Shown here: in pieces, positions 1 through 12,916 of the stretch
Numbering within the stretch: the first letter of the stretch is position 1
Layout of the letters: every line of letters begins with the position of its first letter
Assembly: GCA_043803685.1 (NCBI GenBank)
Contig: JAZDJU010000039.1
Coordinates: 1 to 16,794, forward strand
DNA length: 16,794 nt
Direction: 5' to 3'
Source: Candidatus Omnitrophota bacterium
GTDB lineage: Bacteria; Omnitrophota; Omnitrophia; Omnitrophales; Aquincolibacteriaceae
Position numbers and translations under genes: made by a program
Notes under the pieces: generated by a model
Databases searched by the model: none
The model's input: the letters and a program-made list of their open reading frames with translations, nothing else
Told to the model about the DNA's origin: nothing

Positions 1-2436
1 GGTCCCCCCGCTCATTTGTTTTGATTCTTCAGCCAGATCCACGGGGTCCGTCGTCGCGATCCAATACTCAAGCGCCGTCGGTTCAAGCTTCACGATCACG
101 GGCTGCTCGTCAAACTTGATGAACACTTCGGAATAATGACCGGGCCTTACCTCAAGCTCACGAACGGCCTGGATCTCATTGGGATTAAGACCGAAACGAC
201 CGAGCTGATCATGGCCTTTATGAAGCCTCAGCAGGTATTTCACGGGAGAGTTATTGATGATGACGCTCGCGATCTTCGCCTCAAGAAAATCCTCGGGATT
301 TTGGGAGATGGAAAGAACCCCGGCGTTCATCTTCCTTGCCGTGCGGTAGAACACCTCGACGAGGTCACTCCCCTGTGATTCTTTTAAAAGAAGCCAGCAT
401 TCATCCAGAACGAGCATCTTTTTGATCGCAAGATTCTCGAATTTTCTTTTTAAAGCGAAAGGAATAATGTAAAGAAGGATCTCCTGAAGCTCCGGATATT
501 GCGATATTTTCCGGAGATCAAAGACCGTAAACCGTGAATCGAAATCAAAGACACCCTCCCGGTTCAGGAGTCTTCCGTACTCGCCTTTCGTGAAAAGACA
601 GAGTTCCTTCGCAAATTGATACGCTTTCCGCTTGTCATCCTCATCGCCCGCCACAAAATGAAAAAGAATCTTTTCAACGTCCCCAAGAAGCGGGGCACGA
701 TCCTGAGGAATCGCGTCGTAAACTTCACGGATGGCGCGCTCAAGGATCATTTTTTCGCTGGCCGCCCATTTCCTTTCCGGGCCGATCATTTTCTGGAGCA
801 GTTCTTTCAAGAACTGGAGGAAAGTCGCGTCAGGATCCCCGCCTTCAGGGAAAAGAACCCTTTTCCTGGGAAAGGGATTAAGGGCGTACGCCTCAGAGCA
901 TTCCACCTCGAGATACGACCCTCCCAAAAGATTCGCGAGTTTCCGGTAACTGCCGCCCACATCGATCACGATGACTTCATGCGTTTTCGACGCGATAAAG
1001 AAATGAAGCAGCAGATGGGTCGTAAAAAAAGATTTTCCGGAGCCGGTCGTTCCGAGCATGAACGCGTGTTTTGCCTGAAGTCTGGCGTCAAAAAGATCGA
1101 GATTGAGCGGTTCATCCCTCCAGGTCTTAAGAAGGATCCCGGTTTTCTCGGTCCCACGCCAACTCGCCTGAAGAGGCAATAGATGGGTCAGAACCTCGGA
1201 CCTGACGAGAAACACGAGCGGATTCTCATGCCCCTGAAGCGGAAGAAAGGACAAAAACAAACGGTCATGGTTCATGTGATCGCGAATTCCTTGAGCGTCC
1301 CCAAGACGCGGGAACACACGAAGCATCTCTTCAGCGCGTTTTTCGAGATCAACCCTTGTTTTTTCGCGGAGCATGACCGCCATCGAACAATTCAGGAGCT
1401 TATCTCCGGTTTGGGCGAGTTCCGCCAAAAGCGCCTCTGATTCACCGGCCCGGGCCCCCGCCTCATGATCCCGTGTCCTCGCGAAAAATTCCTGCGCTTT
1501 CGCGAAATTCCCCTGTTTTTTCAAGGAAGCCCGCTCACGATCCTGATCCGGAACCTCAAGTGTGATGGACATAAGGTAATTGCGGCCGAGTGCGCGCTCA
1601 AAATCTCGCATGGCTTTAAGGTTGGTGTGATCCGGAAGCAGCCTGAGATTTAGAATTTCGTGGAAATTCCGGTCCAGGTAAAAGAACCGATCCTCGACAA
1701 CGGGTGGAGTAAGAAGCAGCCGGGACCGGAGCGTCTCTTCACTGCGCCACGCACCCTTTTCAACGATCCCGCTCTTTTCAAACGGCACGATCTCTTTTGA
1801 ATACGAGGGGTTGAAAAGCTCGTAAAGATAACGGAGAAGTTCCGGCTCCTTGATTTTCCCCAAGTGATATCCGATATCGGAAAATCCGGCCAGAATCCGG
1901 GCGGATATGTTTTGTAGCTCTTTCTTCGAAGCCTCGTAATCTGACCGAGCGGCTACTCTGGACTTTTTGCCAAACACCGAGAAAAGATCCGGTAGAAAAG
2001 ACCGAATATCCCGCTTTGCCGCAGGCCGCACTACGATAAAAAGGAACACCTGACGACTGAGAAAAGGATGCTCCCGGTAAGCAGCCGATTTTGCCCCGGC
2101 GATTTTCTTAGCGAAATCGCCCTGCCCGGCAAGGGATTCTTCAAACGCCTTCAGAGCCTCTTCATCCCCTTCCTCGGATTTAACAATGAAGTGAAGCGAT
2201 GTTCCTGTCGGAAGCGAGTTCCAGAGTTTCCGGGCCCTGTTTTCGAAATGCTCAAGCGCCCCATCACTTTCGAGAAGCAGGTCGCGACCATAAACCCTGA
2301 AGCCGCACCCGATCGTCCCTGACACCCCGATCAAAACATCGTCCTCGATGGAGTAAAGATCCGCCTGTTTGTAAAAAGGTATCCGTGATTCGCAACGGAT
2401 GAGGTCCCGTATCCGGAGAAGCTTAGTGCTCTTCAT
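1..2436 (-). CDS. virB4: VirB4/TraC-family type IV secretion ATPase (3' end runs off the window; not in ORF track)
   Basis: Manual translation from ATG at 2436 (MKSTKLLRIRDLIRCESRIPFYKQADLYSIEDDVLIG...). The same frame contains Walker A HAFMLGTTGSGKSFF (~1021-1080), VIVIDVGGSY, Walker B MLVLDECW (from 417), RTARKMNAGVLSISQ and C-terminal YSEVF...LEYWIATTDP. Overlaps the stop of the VirB3-like gene. Confidence 0.93.
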   Translation of the reverse strand, partial: MKSTKLLRIRDLIRCESRIPFYKQADLYSIEDDVLIGVSGTIGCGFRVYGRDLLLESDGALEHFENRARKLWNSLPTGTSLHFIVKSEEGDEEALKAFEESLAGQGDFAKKIAGAKSAAYREHPFLSRQVFLFIVVRPAAKRDIRSFLPDLFSVFGKKSRVAARSDYEASKKELQNISARILAGFSDIGYHLGKIKEPELLRYLYELFNPSYSKEIVPFEKSGIVEKGAWRSEETLRSRLLLTPPVVEDRFFYLDRNFHEILNLRLLPDHTNLKAMRDFERALGRNYLMSITLEVPDQDRERASLKKQGNFAKAQEFFARTRDHEAGARAGESEALLAELAQTGDKLLNCSMAVMLREKTRVDLEKRAEEMLRVFPRLGDAQGIRDHMNHDRLFLSFLPLQGHENPLVFLVRSEVLTHLLPLQASWRGTEKTGILLKTWRDEPLNLDLFDARLQAKHAFMLGTTGSGKSFFTTHLLLHFFIASKTHEVIVIDVGGSYRKLANLLGGSYLEVECSEAYALNPFPRKRVLFPEGGDPDATFLQFLKELLQKMIGPERKWAASEKMILERAIREVYDAIPQDRAPLLGDVEKILFHFVAGDEDDKRKAYQFAKELCLFTKGEYGRLLNREGVFDFDSRFTVFDLRKISQYPELQEILLYIIPFALKRKFENLAIKKMLVLDECWLLLKESQGSDLVEVFYRTARKMNAGVLSISQNPEDFLEAKIASVIINNSPVKYLLRLHKGHDQLGRFGLNPNEIQAVRELEVRPGHYSEVFIKFDEQPVIVKLEPTALEYWIATTDPVDLAEESKQMSGGT

Positions 2437-2710
2437 GATCCAACTCCTTGGGGTGTTCCCGTTTTTGACCGTAATACCGGGTTTTGAAAAGAAAACGGAA
2501 GACACTCGCGGTCCAGTGCGAGGGTTTCCCCTTTTTGTAAAGACGAAGAAAGAAATAGGCAATGCCGACCACAAGGAGATTCAGGAGCAGGTTTTTGGAG
2601 AAAAGAAACACACCAAGATAGATCAGAACCAAAAGCAGCAGATCCGGGAATTCAAGCCCCAGGATCTTATTGCGTTCGTGAATCTTTCGGTAAACCTTAA
2701 GCTGTTTCAT
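2423..2710 (-). CDS. VirB3/TraL-like small membrane protein of the T4SS
   Basis: 95 aa, two hydrophobic segments after KILGLEFPD, basic C-terminus, located between pilin and VirB4, GGAGG RBS. Confidence 0.7.
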   Translation of the reverse strand: MKQLKVYRKIHERNKILGLEFPDLLLLVLIYLGVFLFSKNLLLNLLVVGIAYFFLRLYKKGKPSHWTASVFRFLFKTRYYGQKREHPKELDHEEH

Positions 2711-2720
2711 CGATGTCCTC

Positions 2721-3032
2721 CTAAAAATGAGCCGCGTTCTGAATTAAATCGAGGATCGCCCTCGAAAGCATGATGAGAGCCCCGCCCCCCGCAGCAAGCG
2801 CTCCCCGGCGCATTCCCTGCTCATCGCCGAGCGCCATGGATACACCGGCGATAGCGACCCCGATCACGCAAACTCCGGGACCGATCGAACGGATCATGAA
2901 ATCCCCGATCTGCTGCAAAAAGGACTGGAGATCCGCCTCAGAACCCGCTTCCGCGTAACAAAGACGGGCCTGAATGAGCAGGAATCCGATCCCCACAAGA
3001 ACACGCCACAGTTTTGAAAATTGCACTTTCAT
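2721..3032 (-). CDS. VirB2/TrbC-family conjugative pilin
   Basis: Start reassigned to ATG 3032 (GGAGGAAACA-ATG). 103 aa, signal-peptide-like N-terminus ending LCYA, then two Gly/Ala-rich hydrophobic helices. First gene of the VirB2-B3-B4 order. Confidence 0.8.
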   Translation of the reverse strand: MKVQFSKLWRVLVGIGFLLIQARLCYAEAGSEADLQSFLQQIGDFMIRSIGPGVCVIGVAIAGVSMALGDEQGMRRGALAAGGGALIMLSRAILDLIQNAAHF

Positions 3033-3124
3033 TGTTTCCTCCGTAGTTGAGGGGAAGGAGGCTCTGGAACCCCTTTGGGAGGCATTACCTCGAGCCTGTT
3101 TTGATGGGTCGGCCTCACTTCCCC

Positions 3125-3202
3125 CTATAGTATTGGGCAATAACAGGGGGGGCTGTTCACAAGTTTTCCACATTTCCCCTTAGGAAAATATTTTTCTAGT
3201 CC
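3125..3202 (-). repeat. 78-bp direct repeat copy 1; putative regulated promoter of the pilin/T4SS operon
   Basis: 71/78 ungapped identity with 16418-16495. On the minus strand it ends in a TACTAT -10-like hexamer with no good -35. Overlaps the last codons of the sigma-4 gene. Confidence 0.9.
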
Positions 3203-3782
3203 GTTCGAGAACATAGTAAACAGCGCTGGGACGCCTTCCAAGAGTCCGCGCAATTTGAGCCACCGTGAGCCCGTTCCGATATCGGAGCCTGAAAATTAGT
3301 TTCTGTTTTTTTGTTAACACTGCTAATTTAGAAGACCGCAGCATTCGCCGGATAGAGTCTTTTTCCGAAACAAACTTCCGCAGTCTCAGATAAATTTCCT
3401 GACGGAAACGGCGGACAGTGATCCGGGAAACGCCAAGACGCGTGGCGATCTCTTTGTCCGAAAGACATTCGACGTAAAAGAGGTCGAAAAAAACTTGTCT
3501 TCTTTCCGTAAGCATTCCTTCCCTCGCAAGACGAACCAATCGGGCATGATTTGCCGTAATTTTCCTGCGACCAGAAATTCGGTTCTCCTTCGCAGCCAGG
3601 TCATTAAAGGAACTAGCCGAACCGGCCAGCTTCTCTCTAACCTCCAGCTCGAAAGGATGGAGGGGATCTTCGGGCTGCGTCCCTTCCACTCGCGAAAAAT
3701 CGGTCTCCCGCACTCTCGTCCTTCGTTTATTGCTAGATCCTGAAACATCCGGTTCTTCATTTTTGGATTTTGAATTTGACAC
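3180..3782 (-). CDS. Transcriptional regulator with two tandem sigma70 region-4 HTH domains
   Basis: LTERRQVFFDLFYVECLSDKEIATRLGVSRITVR and LTKKQKLIFRLRYRNGLTVAQIARTLGRRPSAVY both fit the region-4 pattern. Start more likely GTG 3782 (GGGGA 7 nt upstream) than GTG 3827, which abuts a terminator U-tract. Confidence 0.8.
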   Translation of the reverse strand: MSNSKSKNEEPDVSGSSNKRRTRVRETDFSRVEGTQPEDPLHPFELEVREKLAGSASSFNDLAAKENRISGRRKITANHARLVRLAREGMLTERRQVFFDLFYVECLSDKEIATRLGVSRITVRRFRQEIYLRLRKFVSEKDSIRRMLRSSKLAVLTKKQKLIFRLRYRNGLTVAQIARTLGRRPSAVYYVLERTRKIFS

Positions 3783-3827
3783 TGTTGTGTCCCCGCTTTC
3801 CGCCGTGCGGAACCGGAGTGAGGACAC

Positions 3828-3861
3828 AAAAAAAGCGAGCAGCCCGGAGGGTTACCCGCTT
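3828..3861 (-). terminator. Intrinsic terminator/attenuator at the end of the leader, upstream of the sigma-4 gene
   Basis: Minus strand AGCGGGUA-A-CCC-UCC-GGG-C-UGCUCGCU with G-U pairs, running into a 7-U tract. Confidence 0.7.
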
Positions 3862-3971
3862 GTTGACTACGTAAAAATGCAGAAAAAATTTTTAGGAGAA
3901 GATACTAAGGAAGATAAAAAGAGGGATGGTGATGGAGCCAGCCTGGAAGTGAAAAAGTGATGCTAAAGGAA

Positions 3972-4249
3972 GGGGAACCTCCGCGCTGCCGTATCCGAAC
4001 CCGGAACCACACGGCATAATGGTGGTTCCAGATTACCGGAGATCCTCAAAGGAGCTTACGCAAAGCTCCGCTCTGTGGTTTGTCTGAAACAGTTATGTGA
4101 CGCATCAGGACCTTAAAACGGTCTCGGGCGAACAATTGGGGAAGACTATGCTTCCCGCTCATTCAGGCAGCCAAACCGTGGAAAAGAGACCTCCTTGGGT
4201 TGAGGTCTTCTATTTGCCAACGGCCCGATCCCGAAGGATCCGGCTTTTT
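3972..4249. ncRNA. Candidate structured RNA (multi-stem, pseudoknot); family not recognised, strand uncertain
   Basis: About ten complementary segment pairs in 280 nt with no credible ORF; details in findings. Confidence 0.6.
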
Positions 4250-4308
4250 AAAAATCTCCGTATTCGTGAGCTTGATTCGCTCTTGATCGAACCTGGATAA
4301 GTAACAAA

Positions 4309-4337
4309 ATACTACCCAATACGTCCTATAATGTCAA
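4309..4337 (-). promoter_or_regulatory. Sigma70-type promoter TTGACA-N17-TAGTAT
   Basis: Minus strand TTGACA (4337-4332), 17-nt spacer, TAGTAT (4314-4309), just downstream of the cargo-block terminator and pointing at the structured leader and regulator gene. Confidence 0.8.
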
Positions 4338-4379
4338 GGAGTGAATGGATGACTCAGAAACGCAAAAAAAATTCTGGAA

Positions 4380-4405
4380 CGGCGGGAGAAGTATTTCCCC
4401 CGCCG
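4380..4405 (-). terminator. Hairpin closing the cargo block
   Basis: CGGCGGGGGAA-AUAC-UUCUCCCGCCG 11-bp stem just after the stop at 4414; U-rich tract slightly displaced. Confidence 0.65.
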
Positions 4406-4413
4406 CTTTTCGA

Positions 4414-4728
4414 TCATTTTTTCCAGAATCTGCTCTCCTGAATCAGATATCCGGCAGAACGAAGCATACCGGCCACATCAAATGTCTTAAATCCCCCGCC
4501 GCTGCGAACTGGCACGGAATACTGACCGCTTGACAGGTTGACCGCCGAAGTAAAATCGTTCGCAAACGACATGATTCTGCTCACGACAAGCCAGCCCATA
4601 AATATCAGTGGCAGTAGCCAGAAGGCAAGATTCACAAAAATAATGAATAGTGCCTTCAAGATCGTCACGATACTCCGCTTGAGTCTCGCGAATGCCTTTC
4701 GAATTTGATCCAAAACGAATTCTTTCAT
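4414..4728 (-). CDS. Hypothetical membrane protein (104 aa)
   Basis: GAGGAGGT RBS; basic N-terminus followed by a long hydrophobic segment. Confidence 0.75.
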   Translation of the reverse strand: MKEFVLDQIRKAFARLKRSIVTILKALFIIFVNLAFWLLPLIFMGWLVVSRIMSFANDFTSAVNLSSGQYSVPVRSGGGFKTFDVAGMLRSAGYLIQESRFWKK

Positions 4729-5093: not shown

Positions 5094-6179
5094 TTATTTC
5101 TCCTGAGGTAGCTTCACCACTTTCCCGAACGATCCCGAAAAAGCGCCGTCCGGAGTAAGACACCAGAGCGTCGAGCATCTCGATCGTTCCGGATAATCGC
5201 CATATCCGTCGGTGAGATAGACCAGAGCGTCAGGCCGGAGCTTTTCGGCAAGGTCAAAGATGGGCTTAAAGCTCGTTCCCCCTCGTCCCGATACGGCTTT
5301 GGGCCGGGATTTGTAGCGATAGACATTGCCGACTTTCGCGTCGCATTCCGCCACCGTGATCTCCATGCCGAGGGCCTTGATCTTTTCAATCTCCGCGAAG
5401 AAAAGAGAGAGATCCCGGTCACTGACGCTGCCGCTCGTATCAAGCCCGACCAATAGCTTGAGTTTTTGCTCGATCCTCTGGCCGGGAAATTCCTCAAACC
5501 TCCGGTTCGGTCGTTTTCTTGAGAAAACCGAGCGCACGAGTGTCGCCCGGATCAGGAACCTTTCGAGAATGCTCTTCCAGTTGACGCCCGGACCTTTCAG
5601 GAATTCCTTCAGCTGTTCGCGCATGTCCCCGGGAAGAGAACCGTAATCCTGCGTCTCATCAAGCGAGATTTTGACGGCTCTTCTCAGGAACTCCTGCTGA
5701 TACTGCGGATCTTCTACCGGGTCCCCCCAAAGGCTATGATCGTCAAGCATAGAGCCATCTGCTTTCGCGATCTTGGCCTGAAGTTTTTCAGTGTTCTCGA
5801 TGAGCTTCTTGTAATACCACTCCGCTGTTTGCCCATCTTCAAACCCGAAAAGCTTTGGCATCAGAGCTATTCTCGGAAGATTTCTGATGAATGTGTTGAT
5901 GGCAAGATCACAGGCGATATTAAAAATCCCGTGATTCTTTCCATCTCCTCGAAAGAGATGAAGGTGCAACAAATGAAGCACCTCATGCTCGAGACACGCG
6001 ACACGCTCGTCAAACTTGAGACCTTCCAGGAATTTCGGATTGAAATAGAGATTGATACGCCCCGTGATATTCACTCCCAGAGTCGGAACCTTCTCCGTCT
6101 CGATCCTGTTCATTTGCTGAACGAAATGCGCGTAAAACGGCTTGGTTTGCACAAGTGATACGACCATTTCCTCAATCAT
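5094..6179 (-). CDS. HExxH metallopeptidase-like + VWA domain protein (DUF2201-type), MoxR partner
   Basis: LEHEVLHLL motif, FNIACDLAIN, DDHSLW, MIDAS elements DTSGS / GGTSF / YLTDG. Start reassigned to ATG 6179 (AAAGGAGG RBS, overlapping the end of the upstream gene). Confidence 0.88.
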   Translation of the reverse strand: MIEEMVVSLVQTKPFYAHFVQQMNRIETEKVPTLGVNITGRINLYFNPKFLEGLKFDERVACLEHEVLHLLHLHLFRGDGKNHGIFNIACDLAINTFIRNLPRIALMPKLFGFEDGQTAEWYYKKLIENTEKLQAKIAKADGSMLDDHSLWGDPVEDPQYQQEFLRRAVKISLDETQDYGSLPGDMREQLKEFLKGPGVNWKSILERFLIRATLVRSVFSRKRPNRRFEEFPGQRIEQKLKLLVGLDTSGSVSDRDLSLFFAEIEKIKALGMEITVAECDAKVGNVYRYKSRPKAVSGRGGTSFKPIFDLAEKLRPDALVYLTDGYGDYPERSRCSTLWCLTPDGAFSGSFGKVVKLPQEK

Positions 6180-6555
6180 GATGTCTCCCTCCTTTGGCAT
6201 CAAAGAAGACCGTTGTATCTTTGATGACCTGTTCATAAGTTATAAACATGACCTTCCCTTTGCTGATCTCAAGAGCCCAGTTATCGTCCCGCTCTTCGCC
6301 GCTGGCATTGATCCATCCCGTCGCGCTTTTGGGAAACGCCCGGACGATCGCCATCACGAACCTCTGGAATTCCTCGTGGTAGTTTTTCCAGTTGGCAAAG
6401 ATTTCGAGATGGTATCCGTCCTTGTTCTTTTCAACGCGGCTCTCATTGGAAAAGTCCGGGAAGCGCCTGCGCAGGATATTTTCGAGGCGTTTTCCTTCCT
6501 TCCCGGAGAGACCCGGAAGATCGATGCTCCCTGTGAAATCCGTGTAGTACCCCAT
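6172..6555 (-). CDS. Hypothetical protein (127 aa) between MoxR and VWA genes
   Basis: GGGGAGG RBS; 3' end overlaps the VWA gene start. Confidence 0.8.
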   Translation of the reverse strand: MGYYTDFTGSIDLPGLSGKEGKRLENILRRRFPDFSNESRVEKNKDGYHLEIFANWKNYHEEFQRFVMAIVRAFPKSATGWINASGEERDDNWALEISKGKVMFITYEQVIKDTTVFFDAKGGRHHD

Positions 6556-6587
6556 GGTTAGAACCTCCCCGTAACGGGTTTAGACGG

Positions 6588-6620
6588 AAAAAAAGCGGGG
6601 AAAACCGAAGTTCTCCCCGC
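6588..6620 (-). terminator. Intrinsic terminator with cUUCGg tetraloop
   Basis: GCGGGGAGAAC-UUCG-GUUUUCCCCGC-UUUUUUU. Confidence 0.85.
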
Positions 6621-6643
6621 CTTTATCCCTGTGAGATGTACGT

Positions 6644-7690
6644 TTAAACCGCGCGTGCCGCTTGAGCGAGCTTCTCCGTGAATTTTTCCTCTTTGCGCAG
6701 AAAAGCGCTCACCTCCGGGATCTTCACCAGTTCCTTCACGAGCGCGAACGCGAGATCCACCGGAAGATCATCCAGAAAATCCACGAGGTTCGATTTCTGC
6801 TGGTTGCTTAACGCTTTCGTTTTTTCTTCTTTCGCCAGAATCCTCAAGATCTCGTCTCCGGTGATTCTCAGAAGATCAAGCCGGGCCTTTTTCCCGCTTG
6901 AATGTTTTTTGACGCGGGCTTTAACCTTCCCGTAATCCGAAAGGATCTCCTCCGCTTTGATGGGGACCTCCTGATCTTTTTTCAGGCTTTCGATGAACGC
7001 GATAGCGGCCTCCTTGCCGACGAGGCCCATGGCGCATTGCAGCCAAAGCCGGTCTTCAAGACCGTTCAACATTCTTGAAAGCATCTCCCAGGATCTCGGC
7101 GAGGGCAGCACTTCGAGGGGGAGATCGTTTGACGGGTTTCCGAGCAGATGATGGTAACGCGCGATCAAATCCAGAATCTCCTCCCGGATCTTTCCCGTAT
7201 CCTTTCCCCATCCGATCCACTCGTTCGGCTCCGGACGGAACTGAATGTGAAGAAACCGGTCGAGCAACGCCGGATCAAGCTCGTTTACGAAATAATCGCT
7301 CCCGGACGGGTTCGAGGCGCATACGACCCTCCAGCCTTCCGGAAGATGATGGGTGTGCAATTTTTTCTCCAACACGAGCTGAAAGATCGCCTGAAGCACA
7401 TCAAGACGCGCACGGTTCAACTCATCGAGAAAGAGTATCCCGACACTTCCTTCCTTGGGAAACCAGGACGGCTTGAGCCATACGGTTCTTCCGTCTTCTT
7501 TGGAAGGAAGCCCGATCAAATCCCCGACTTCCATCTGCCCCAGCCGCAGATCCACGCATTCGTACTTCATTTCCTCCGCAAGAGTCTGCACGATCTGGCT
7601 TTTTCCGATCCCATGCTGGCCCCAGACGAGCGGCGTTACATTCGCTTTGAAACATTGTTGAAGCACTTTGACTAAATCGACGGTATTCAT
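6644..7690 (-). CDS. MoxR/dynein-related AAA+ ATPase (AAA_5-like)
   Basis: Walker A WGQHGIGKS, Walker B ILFLDELNRA, sensor-1 ASNP, arginine finger LDPALLDRF, SPRSW motif. Confidence 0.92.
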   Translation of the reverse strand: MNTVDLVKVLQQCFKANVTPLVWGQHGIGKSQIVQTLAEEMKYECVDLRLGQMEVGDLIGLPSKEDGRTVWLKPSWFPKEGSVGILFLDELNRARLDVLQAIFQLVLEKKLHTHHLPEGWRVVCASNPSGSDYFVNELDPALLDRFLHIQFRPEPNEWIGWGKDTGKIREEILDLIARYHHLLGNPSNDLPLEVLPSPRSWEMLSRMLNGLEDRLWLQCAMGLVGKEAAIAFIESLKKDQEVPIKAEEILSDYGKVKARVKKHSSGKKARLDLLRITGDEILRILAKEEKTKALSNQQKSNLVDFLDDLPVDLAFALVKELVKIPEVSAFLRKEEKFTEKLAQAARAV

Positions 7691-11482: not shown

Positions 11483-12145
11483 CTAAAGTTGGCTGCGCTC
11501 CGAGAAACTGAAATACTGGTTCTCCCCGATGATGATGTGGTCGAGAACCCTGATCGAGACCGTCTGGCAGGCGGCCTTGATCTTCTGCGTGATCTCGTAA
11601 TCCTCGCGGCTGGGTTCGACCTTTCCGGAGGGATGGTTGTGCACGAGGGCAATACTTGAAGCGGAAAACTCCAAAGCAGCGCGCACAATTTCACGAGGAT
11701 GCACCGCAGCTTCGTCGATCGTTCCGAAGAAAAGGTCCCGCTCACCGATAATGCGGAGCCCCTTATCGAGGAATATCACCTTAAAGACCTCGCGCTTCAG
11801 GTCCCGGAGACTGGCCGAGAGGTAATCCGTGACTGCTTGGGGACTGCGAACGAAGTTCTGACCGATCATTCCCTGTCTTAAGACTCGTTTTCCGATCTCA
11901 CGGACCGCCTGAAGTTCAGCCCATTGAGATTCACTCAGATCCTTCAGATCAAAGACCTGGCGAAGCCCTCCGGCCCTGCTCAAAAGATCCATCGCAACAC
12001 CGACTTCCGTTTGCTCATACGTGGCCCTCTTAAGGATCAGAGACAGAAGCTCCGCATCAGAAAGCGCCTCGATCCCTTTCTCCTTCGCCCTTACCGCAGG
12101 CCGCTCGGTCTCCGGCCAATCCCGGACCGATAATTTTCTTCTCAT
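11483..12145 (-). CDS. radC: RadC-family JAB/MPN domain protein
   Basis: WPETERP...LSDAELL N-terminus, GTIDEAAVHPREI, HNHPSG-x3-PS-x2-D JAMM motif, VLDHIIIG. Confidence 0.95.
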   Translation of the reverse strand: MRRKLSVRDWPETERPAVRAKEKGIEALSDAELLSLILKRATYEQTEVGVAMDLLSRAGGLRQVFDLKDLSESQWAELQAVREIGKRVLRQGMIGQNFVRSPQAVTDYLSASLRDLKREVFKVIFLDKGLRIIGERDLFFGTIDEAAVHPREIVRAALEFSASSIALVHNHPSGKVEPSREDYEITQKIKAACQTVSIRVLDHIIIGENQYFSFSERSQL

Positions 12146-12168
12146 GGTGGGACCCCCCTTTTAGACGC

Positions 12169-12210
12169 AAAAAGAGGCGGACTCCCTTTAACGGGAATAC
12201 CACCTCTCTT
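12169..12210 (-). terminator. Terminator-like hairpin upstream of radC
   Basis: AGAGGUGG(U)AUUCCC-GUUAAA-GGGAGUCCGCCUCU-UUUU. Confidence 0.72.
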
Positions 12211-12239
12211 GCGTGTTTGATGTATTTGTTACTTTCGTT

Positions 12240-12332
12240 TCAGCGAACCACGATCTCCCAGCCGTTTCTTTGAAACCTCCCGATCAAACCAGCGTGTTTT
12301 TCGAGATCACTTTTTCGAACGATCAACCTCAT
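12240..12332 (-). CDS. Small protein (30 aa; not in ORF track)
   Basis: Full AAAGGAGGTGA Shine-Dalgarno, ATG at 12332; MRLIVRKSDLEKHAGLIGRFQRNGWEIVVR. Confidence 0.65.
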   Translation of the reverse strand: MRLIVRKSDLEKHAGLIGRFQRNGWEIVVR

Positions 12333-12349
12333 GACATTCACCTCCTTTC

Positions 12350-12387
12350 AAAAAATAGGGGGACGGCACCGGAAAGCACCGTCCCCC
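12350..12387 (-). terminator. Terminator-like hairpin abutting the RBS of the 30-aa ORF
   Basis: GGGGGACGGUGC-UUUCCG-GUGCCGUCCCCC-UAUUUUUU-GAAAGGAGG. Confidence 0.78.
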
Positions 12388-12415
12388 GTTTGGTTTTTTA
12401 AACCGCACTGCCCGT

Positions 12416-12916
12416 CTAGGCTGCGCGCGCGGCGTGAGAGGGCATGAGCCCTAAGATCACGTCTTCAAGCGCGGACTCCGGGATCGAAACTCCCTTTCTT
12501 TTGGACGGGAAATACGAGCCGTCCTTGGAATAGAACCGCCGGATATCCACGAAGGTGGCCTTTCGCCCGCATCCTTTGGAGATCCGGAAGATCTCGGTTC
12601 CCGAAACCGGAATATCGCAGACCGTGACGCTTGCGACACTCACCCCCTCGGGTCTTACGGCCTGAGGAACGGTCCGGGCCTTGATGAGCCCCGCGATGAT
12701 AGGTTCACGGAATTTCTCCGCGAAACACACGCCCTTCGAGCTCGGCACGAGTTTGCTCTTGTCATCCTTGGCCCTGAAAAAGATCCTCAGGTCCAGATAA
12801 CGGTTCCCTTTGTAGTCCTTTTGCGAGATCCGGTAGATGTCATTCTCGGATCTCGGAACATCCGCGAGGACCACGATTTCTTGTTTCACGTCTTGAACTG
12901 CATTTTGAGTTTCCAT
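12416..12916 (-). CDS. Tandem PC4 (p15/YdbC-like) ssDNA-binding domain protein
   Basis: Two repeats: YKGNRYLDLRIFF...PSSKGVCF and RKATFVDIRRFY...PSKRKGVSI, matching the PC4 DIR.f/y...P.kKG motif. Confidence 0.85.
   Translation of the reverse strand: METQNAVQDVKQEIVVLADVPRSENDIYRISQKDYKGNRYLDLRIFFRAKDDKSKLVPSSKGVCFAEKFREPIIAGLIKARTVPQAVRPEGVSVASVTVCDIPVSGTEIFRISKGCGRKATFVDIRRFYSKDGSYFPSKRKGVSIPESALEDVILGLMPSHAARAA

Follow-up and report, generated by a model that had tools for sequence, protein, structure and literature searches.

The window (the whole stretch of DNA that was analysed, 16,794 nt) represents an entire 16.8-kb contig of a 2.9-Mb genome of an uncultured Omnitrophota bacterium, which is 91% complete and 6.6% contaminated. 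All large genes of the window are located on the minus strand (Table 1), and the contig is a conjugative element in which a leader precedes the mating-pore (T4SS) genes. The leader lies in a 630-nt gap between the 104-aa ORF and the gene for a 200-aa regulator. The pilin gene starts 6 nt past the regulator stop codon and is followed by the gene for the VirB4 ATPase; the regulator, pilin, and VirB4 are probably co-transcribed as one operon, in which the genes downstream of the regulator occupy positions 1..3173.

The regulator has a basic N-terminal patch, the motif DF-RVE...PFELE (DFSRVE in the window, DFMRVE in most relatives), and two sigma-70 region-4 helix-turn-helix units. The Pfam scan of this protein returned 20 families, every one of the helix-turn-helix or sigma region-4 type. 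The preliminary description had named it the master regulator, which is a presumed role; the sequence shows a protein with two region-4 domains and, behind its gene, the pilin and VirB4 genes. The N-terminus (window 3782-3600), with its arginine/lysine-rich patch and the DF-RVE...PFELE motif common to the homologues, is a module without a family assignment.

Several other properties of the element were recorded. A terminator-like hairpin within the 3' end of the pilin gene (window 2749-2765, minus strand) might reduce the expression of the genes beyond the pilin. Metatranscriptome contigs from two runs span the junction of the regulator stop and the pilin start (window 3124-3201) and diverge upstream of 3201; therefore, relatives have a common pilin 5' region behind a different regulator. 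Regions 5094-7690 and 11483-12916 encode a MoxR-type AAA ATPase together with its DUF2201 metallopeptidase/VWA partner, as well as RadC and a single-strand-binding protein resembling PC4. Four ORFs of the element, 157-368 aa in length, had no match in Pfam or NCBIfam.

Table 1. Genes and predicted regulatory features of the window, from the upstream genes to the end of the contig
Feature	Position	Strand	Evidence
Relaxase-like, coupling protein, PC4-like, RadC, MoxR ATPase, VWA/DUF2201, and 104-aa ORF genes		minus	ORF list, Pfam
Terminator-like hairpin (stem 4405-4396 with 4389-4380), 8 nt, T8 run (4371-4364)	4364..4405	minus	Sequence, fold
Predicted sigma-70-type promoter: -35 TTGACA (4337-4332), 17-nt spacer, -10 TAGTAT (4314-4309)	4309..4337	minus	Promoter scan, 10/12 matches
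Structured 5' domain of several hairpins, type-specific	4031..4301	minus	Alignment, covariation
Hairpin S1 (4029-4022 with 4010-4003), loop with conserved GCCGUG (4015-4010)	4003..4029	minus	Covariation, fold
Predicted antiterminator strand	3972..3993	minus	Covariation, duplex energies, strand motif
Pyrimidine-rich, G-poor spacer, 114 nt (overlaps the strand entry at 3974-3972)	3861..3974	minus	Composition
Predicted intrinsic terminator: stem of 11 bp including one mismatch (3859-3849 with 3845-3835), UCC loop, U7 (3834-3828)	3828..3859	minus	Fold, covariation
Hairpin 3' of the terminator, burying Shine-Dalgarno GGGGA (3794-3790)	3787..3827	minus	Fold, covariation
Regulator gene, 200 aa, GTG start	3180..3782	minus	Pfam, homologue comparison
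TrbC/VirB2 pilin gene	3173-2721	minus	Pfam
VirB4/TraC ATPase gene, cut by the contig end	2574-1	minus	Pfam

The promoter TTGACA-N17-TAGTAT, named in the preliminary description, was recovered at 4337-4309 of the minus strand and is kept in relatives. The -35 element and the spacing are identical in all 11 aligned type-A relatives, and TTGAC-N16-18-TAnnnT precedes 18 of the 25 related leaders, one of these being a false match inside a hairpin. The frequency of promoter-like sites is itself at chance level (2 found in 2.8 kb versus 2.0 ± 1.3 in shuffles). Conservation of the leader starts 7-8 nt past the -10 element, and this onset together with the promoter spacing predicts transcription start near 4302. 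The scan found no promoter-like site from 3861 to 3782, where the preliminary description had held that an independent promoter would speak against its reading.

Upstream of this promoter, the hairpin at 4364..4405 (-24.4 kcal/mol, z -4.3) probably insulates it from the preceding gene. BLAST homology among related elements begins abruptly at window 4416/4412, the stop codon of the 104-aa ORF. By this pattern of homology, positions 4412-4416 are the apparent module boundary at which the leader-regulator-T4SS block has been joined to differing upstream genes.

Between the predicted start near 4302 and the last U of the U-tract at 3828, the minus-strand leader comprises about 475 nt and folds better than its shuffles (z = -3.1), in line with the leader of ~470 nt described earlier. 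Its 3' end is formed by the predicted terminator GCGGGUAACCC-UCC-GGGCUGCUCGC (3859-3835) with U7, which has a fold energy of -16 kcal/mol (z = -3.6) and was omitted by a simple terminator scan because the stem contains one mismatch. Across 30 leaders, nine pairs of this hairpin could be compared; 90.6% of cells were paired, and four pairs showed compensatory change. The U-tract ends 46 nt before GTG 3782, which is the conserved start codon of the regulator since it is aligned with ATG in the G188 group, while ATG 3759 is not conserved. The GC stem plus U7 noted previously about 45 nt ahead of the start was thus confirmed and found to covary. The hairpin between the terminator and the start codon (-23.1 kcal/mol, z -3.2) carries the conserved loop CACGGCGGAAAG; its stems covary, with 77-83% of cells paired as aligned.

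The leader had also been called ORF-free. It contains no conserved ORF, but ORFs of 41 aa (sense) and of 67 and 76 aa (antisense) are present; none of the three had a Pfam match, and their position and frame are not kept in relatives. The 41-aa ORF (4017-3892) spans the antiterminator strand and was considered as a leader peptide. Its ATG is located in a hairpin loop and has no ribosome-binding site, and in the G188 group this ATG is TAG, so that the leader-peptide reading was rejected. The two antisense ORFs were likewise rejected for want of a Pfam match and of conservation.

Known RNA families were not recognized in this region. Rfam gave no match over the whole window at E<=1 and six matches over the leader alone at E<=10, all far below the gathering threshold; these (CRISPR-DR27, trpB, PYLIS_2, sroE, and two snoRNAs) were judged to be due to chance. 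A T-box-like reading of GUGGUUCC was dropped since no Rfam T-box match was obtained. Blastn of the leader against a plasmid collection found no match.

Relatives of the leader were found in several data sets. A second copy, 85% identical, is present on another contig of the same genome (C113), and copies 95% and 78% identical occur in two other genomes of the 401 Omnitrophota genomes searched (400 and the window's own); 10 metagenome contigs were found by an exact 22-mer. Homologues of the regulator, 26-81% identical, are encoded in 21 of the 401 genomes, all within the order of the window, and five of them belong to the window's own genome. Up to 1100 nt upstream of each of 29 regulator homologues were taken for comparison. 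An nhmmer profile of the type-A leader matched 23 of these 29 regions, only by its 3' third, and the motif of the G-rich strand (the predicted antiterminator strand) was present exactly once, in the same orientation as the regulator, in 26 of them; in the other three only 123 or 333 nt were available or the protein matches were marginal. Therefore, a 3' switch module is common to the family, while the 5' 200-300 nt are entirely different between leader types.

The alignment used for pairing statistics (A4) included 30 leaders, 25 genomic and 5 metagenomic. These leaders are related (roughly 8-10 lineages, with type B over-represented), so shuffle controls overstate significance and the counts given below are not probabilities. 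Since the rows were chosen by the strand motif, conservation of the strand is biased, but its covariation with the terminator is not.

The genome of the window contains five regulator and leader loci, on contigs C39 (the window), C113, C73, C35, and C23 (L044, L065, L068, L070, and L072), of which two are of type A and three of type B. They represent either several related T4SS elements in one cell or strains mixed in a bin with 6.6% contamination.

The terminator's 3' arm, loop, and 5' arm all have their complement in the sequence GGCAGC-G-CGGAGG-UU-CCCC (3990-3972). In 11 type-A leaders, RNAalifold paired 3990-3978 with the loop and the 3' arm of the terminator, and the CCC with the 5' arm; for 13 type-B leaders alone it predicted the same long-range helix, about 22 bp in length, which unzips the entire terminator. 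In the first part of the helix (GGCAGC with GCUGCU), 179 of 180 cells pair across the 30 leaders, and compensatory changes (16 cells) occur in three of its six pairs, with controls slid by 1-3 columns pairing at only 20-53%. The variants observed are GGCAGC/GCUGCC, GGCAAC/GUUGCC, GGCAAU/AUUGCC, and GGUAAC/GUUACC. The second part changes in step as well (CGGAGG/CCUCCG, CGGAAG/CUUCCG, and GGAGAG/CUCUCC); since loop gaps differ among the types, column counts were precluded, and duplex energies were calculated in their place. Each of the 29 distinct combinations of strand and terminator retains the full duplex, with a mean energy of -24.0 kcal/mol for cognate versus -19.5 kcal/mol for non-cognate pairs. 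Regulators with only 30-45% identity are preceded by this helix as well.

The two conformations are close in energy. In constrained folds, the terminator and antiterminator structures differ by a mean of 1.3 kcal/mol, the antiterminator being lower in 11 of 30 leaders; these energies are approximate, since for one leader (G154C69) the constrained fold lay below the unconstrained one, an artefact of the enforced pairs.

Taken as sequence evidence, the conservation of the leader and the covariation of a terminator and an exclusive long-range antiterminator support the attenuator architecture and RNA-controlled conjugation switch proposed in the preliminary description. We consider it probable that this leader of a conjugative element's mating-pore operon contains a transcription attenuator, and the leader most likely decides whether the DNA-transfer genes are switched on. 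Counting against attenuation is that the antiterminator has to close a loop of 106-254 nt without a long central stem like the one by which the pLS20 zipper is nucleated. Binding of CsrA to the conserved GGA motifs was also considered and dropped: in 2 of the 30 leaders AGA replaces the GGA that precedes the strand, and a CsrA gene was not found in the 91%-complete genome.

The pairing data also bear on whether the conserved block acts as DNA, that is, as an origin of transfer or an inverted-repeat operator whose helices would simply be DNA palindromes. It is the best-conserved non-coding block of the conjugative element, GCCGT...ACGGC forms a DNA inverted repeat, and the adjacent gene specifies a dimeric helix-turn-helix protein. 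However, many of the variants that keep the helices are G-U wobbles, which fit the transcribed strand only and as A-C on the other strand would break DNA symmetry. A single transcribed strand accommodates the promoter, U-tract, and ribosome-site hairpin, the relaxase-like gene is 11 kb away, and pairing over more than 100 nt has no rationale in DNA, which makes a DNA element highly improbable.

The structured 5' domain is 78% identical at the nucleotide level between the window and the G188 lineage, in which the regulator protein is 45% identical. The whole-leader structure of type A comprises 86 pairs, with 99.2% of cells paired in the same sequences from which it was derived, and nine pairs show compensatory change; here too, wobble variants fit the transcribed strand only. 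An anti-antiterminator within this domain was rejected: GCUGCC near 4170 could pair with GGCAGC, but the pairing does not covary in the G188 group. On the plus strand, window 4227-4250 holds a type-A leader hairpin (4227-4240) followed by TTTTT, which resembles a terminator of an antisense transcript.

Metatranscriptome contigs from four runs of four studies, whole short contigs with 95-99% identity, fall inside 3949-4274 and give a weak hint that the RNA exists in nature, as they reveal neither strand nor ends and may include DNA. The regulator coding sequence, spacer, and terminator were not covered by these contigs. We did not take this as a sign of termination, since the contigs derive from relatives and these parts are variable.

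The better conservation of the 5' domain than of the regulator, the restriction of the metatranscriptome contigs to 3949-4274, and the complete difference of this domain among types that have the switch in common would suit a stand-alone trans-acting RNA directed at co-resident elements or host targets, with read-through into the regulator being incidental. These observations are compatible with an attenuator as well. A stand-alone RNA is unlikely, since in 26 of 29 cases the leader immediately precedes the regulator gene and has its orientation, the scan found no separate promoter for the regulator, and such an RNA has no known target. In addition, the covarying antiterminator would be purposeless in it.

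The leader contains a candidate for holding back the G-rich strand. Hairpin S1 has a fold energy of -18 kcal/mol, and equivalent hairpins were seen in the other leader types of alignment A4. Its GCCGUG is complementary to UACGGC (3993-3988) at the 5' end of the antiterminator strand. Generalized as GCCGYG/YRCGGC, this complementarity holds in 100% of two-sided cells, with 13 of 30 rows gapped at pair 53:82; one position varies among U-A (14 leaders), C-G (12), and U-G (4). The pairing, which may be a pseudoknot with S1 or an alternative hairpin, involves only 6 bp and overlaps the strand by 3 nt, and therefore would alone be a weak switch that needs help. The element GCCGY complements the ribosome-site hairpin's loop as well (147 of 150 cells), with the same U-A/C-G change.

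The spacer between the strand and the terminator is composed of 31% C, 42% U, and 8% G in the window, and its sequence is variable. Among the 30 leaders it ranges from 106 to 254 nt, with mean contents of 28% C, 38% U, and 15% G versus 28% G in the window minus strand. Its G content is 8-20%, and only small hairpins are predicted in it, both in the window and in type B. The spacer could hold the loop unstructured or act as a loading site for Rho.

With such a spacer, the operon might be controlled mainly in trans, either by a countertranscript as in pCF10 or by Rho loading on the C-rich RNA. The spacer has more C than G in 29 of 30 leaders and is largely unstructured, like a Rho loading site, and Rho is encoded in the genome. 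The plus-strand hairpin at 4227-4240 could terminate an antisense RNA, and in the pLS20 study (PMC13401043), both a protein and an antisense RNA are considered as candidate triggers. On the other side, no plus-strand promoter-like site was found by the scan inside the leader, the antisense terminator-like hairpin occurs in type A only, and the spacer is kept in composition, not in sequence. Moreover, the intrinsic terminator and the antiterminator covary and are thus under selection themselves, and we regard predominant control by a trans partner as improbable.

For the attenuator, the following sequence of events can be proposed. Transcription would start near 4302 and produce a structured 5' domain of ~270 nt, then S1, and then the G-rich strand (3990-3972), after which the pyrimidine-rich spacer of ~114 nt and the terminator hairpin with its U7 would emerge. 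While being transcribed, the terminator would be zipped from its 5' arm outward by the G-rich strand into a long-range helix of 15-22 bp. This helix would block the terminator hairpin, and so the polymerase would go on to transcribe the genes for the regulator, pilin, and VirB4. With the G-rich strand held back, the terminator would form and a leader RNA of about 475 nt would be released. The best candidate for holding the strand is the pairing of the GCCGUG loop with UACGGC at the strand 5' end, which would probably require a stabilising factor or a certain state of the 5' domain.

A second layer of control is likely to operate at translation: a strong hairpin encloses the ribosome-binding site, and the loop of this hairpin, too, complements GCCGY. 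In the read-through RNA, GCCGY would be freed and could therefore open this hairpin, as the complementarity suggests. The sequence features, their conservation, the covariation of both folds, and the similar energies are observed, whereas it is by inference that we assign a default state, let GCCGY act as an anti-antiterminator, couple the switch to translation, and consider what the signal may be. More tentatively, and with some doubt, the leader may be viewed as a modular riboregulator, in which GCCGY toggles between the strand and the ribosome-site loop, coupling read-through to translation start, and the type-specific 5' domains of 200-300 nt are plug-in sensors, so far undescribed, for a ligand, protein, or RNA.

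In riboswitch and T-box leaders, a structured sensor domain precedes terminator and antiterminator helices that exclude each other. The leader analysed here likewise places a structured domain ahead of such a pair of helices, but has no Rfam match, its putative sensor domain is not conserved between leader types, and its strand is 106-254 nt from the terminator, whereas in those leaders the two are adjacent. In plasmid pCF10 of Enterococcus faecalis, the antisense RNA Anti-Q drives terminator formation; in our leader, an antisense promoter was not found by the scan. The prgQ/Anti-Q system, to which the pLS20 study refers, is similar in that a leader terminator (IRS1) gates a conjugation operon and the outcome is determined by alternative RNA folds.

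Among known systems, the closest is cATTpLS20 (Gonzalez-Alvarez et al., Nucleic Acids Res 2026, PMC13401043), an attenuator of the zipper type that lies in the 456-nt leader of the conjugation operon on pLS20, a plasmid of Bacillus subtilis. In both systems, a conjugation operon opens with a long leader, of 456 nt in pLS20 and about 475 nt in the window, and an intrinsic terminator closely precedes the first gene. Both also have, ~100 nt or more upstream, a strand complementary to the terminator that could form a long-range antiterminator. The GCCGUG/UACGGC pairing may correspond to SL-2 of pLS20, a weak upstream stem-loop that is the best-conserved part and has the antiterminator strand as its 3' strand. 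In both cases, the conformations are close in energy. The likeness is one of architecture, and no sequence similarity is claimed.

The two systems also differ in several respects. The host of pLS20 belongs to Firmicutes, while ours is an uncultured Omnitrophota bacterium. In pLS20, a long imperfect stem-loop, ext-SL-3, nucleates the zipper, whereas here the strands are separated by a mostly unpaired pyrimidine-rich spacer; the folds of the window and type-B leaders and the spacer composition revealed no ext-SL-3-like stem-loop between the strands. Unlike in cATTpLS20, the strand pairs with the terminator loop and 3' arm in addition to the 5' arm. The first gene encodes two sigma region-4 domains instead of ConAn1. 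Present here beyond what is described for cATTpLS20 are the ribosome-site hairpin with its GCCGY-complementary loop and the large conserved type-specific 5' domain.

The preliminary description had cited conAn of pLS20 as the precedent. As described by Miguel-Arribas et al. (2021, PMC8191782), conAn exerts a processive effect on many terminators via the ConAn1 protein, with its pXO2-34 processivity domain (PF17362), and the conAn2 RNA downstream of conAn1, and shares with our leader RNA-based post-initiation control at the head of a conjugation operon. However, the evidence obtained here is for a single terminator/antiterminator switch, and PF17362 is absent from the 20 Pfam families of the regulator; because of this absence conAn is not a match, and cATTpLS20 is the better precedent. 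If the leader were nevertheless the RNA part of a processive antitermination system (conAn, EAR, or put RNA), the polymerase would ignore terminators along the operon. The like position of a long structured RNA heading a conjugation operon agrees with this, and a sigma region-4 fold could in principle contact the polymerase flap. On the other hand, no Rfam antitermination RNA was matched, no series of internal terminators is documented, and a covarying exclusive helix characterizes classical attenuation at a single terminator, which leaves processive antitermination very unlikely.

With attenuation as the preferred reading, the significance of these leaders can be considered in a wider context. 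Post-initiation control of conjugation is documented mainly in plasmids of Firmicutes, and a search of literature listings for conjugation control in Omnitrophota found no paper. The zipper-like logic of pLS20, published in 2026, would thus have a counterpart in T4SS elements of Omnitrophota without detectable sequence similarity, which suggests that attenuation in the leader has evolved repeatedly as a general checkpoint for costly transfer machinery. This family provides a natural series of compensatory variants for the question of how a long-range antiterminator beats a local hairpin. If the modular organization is true, the 5' domains would be under stronger constraint than the protein they control, and co-resident conjugative elements would be switched individually. 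The large conserved 5' RNA domain may be a new sensor.
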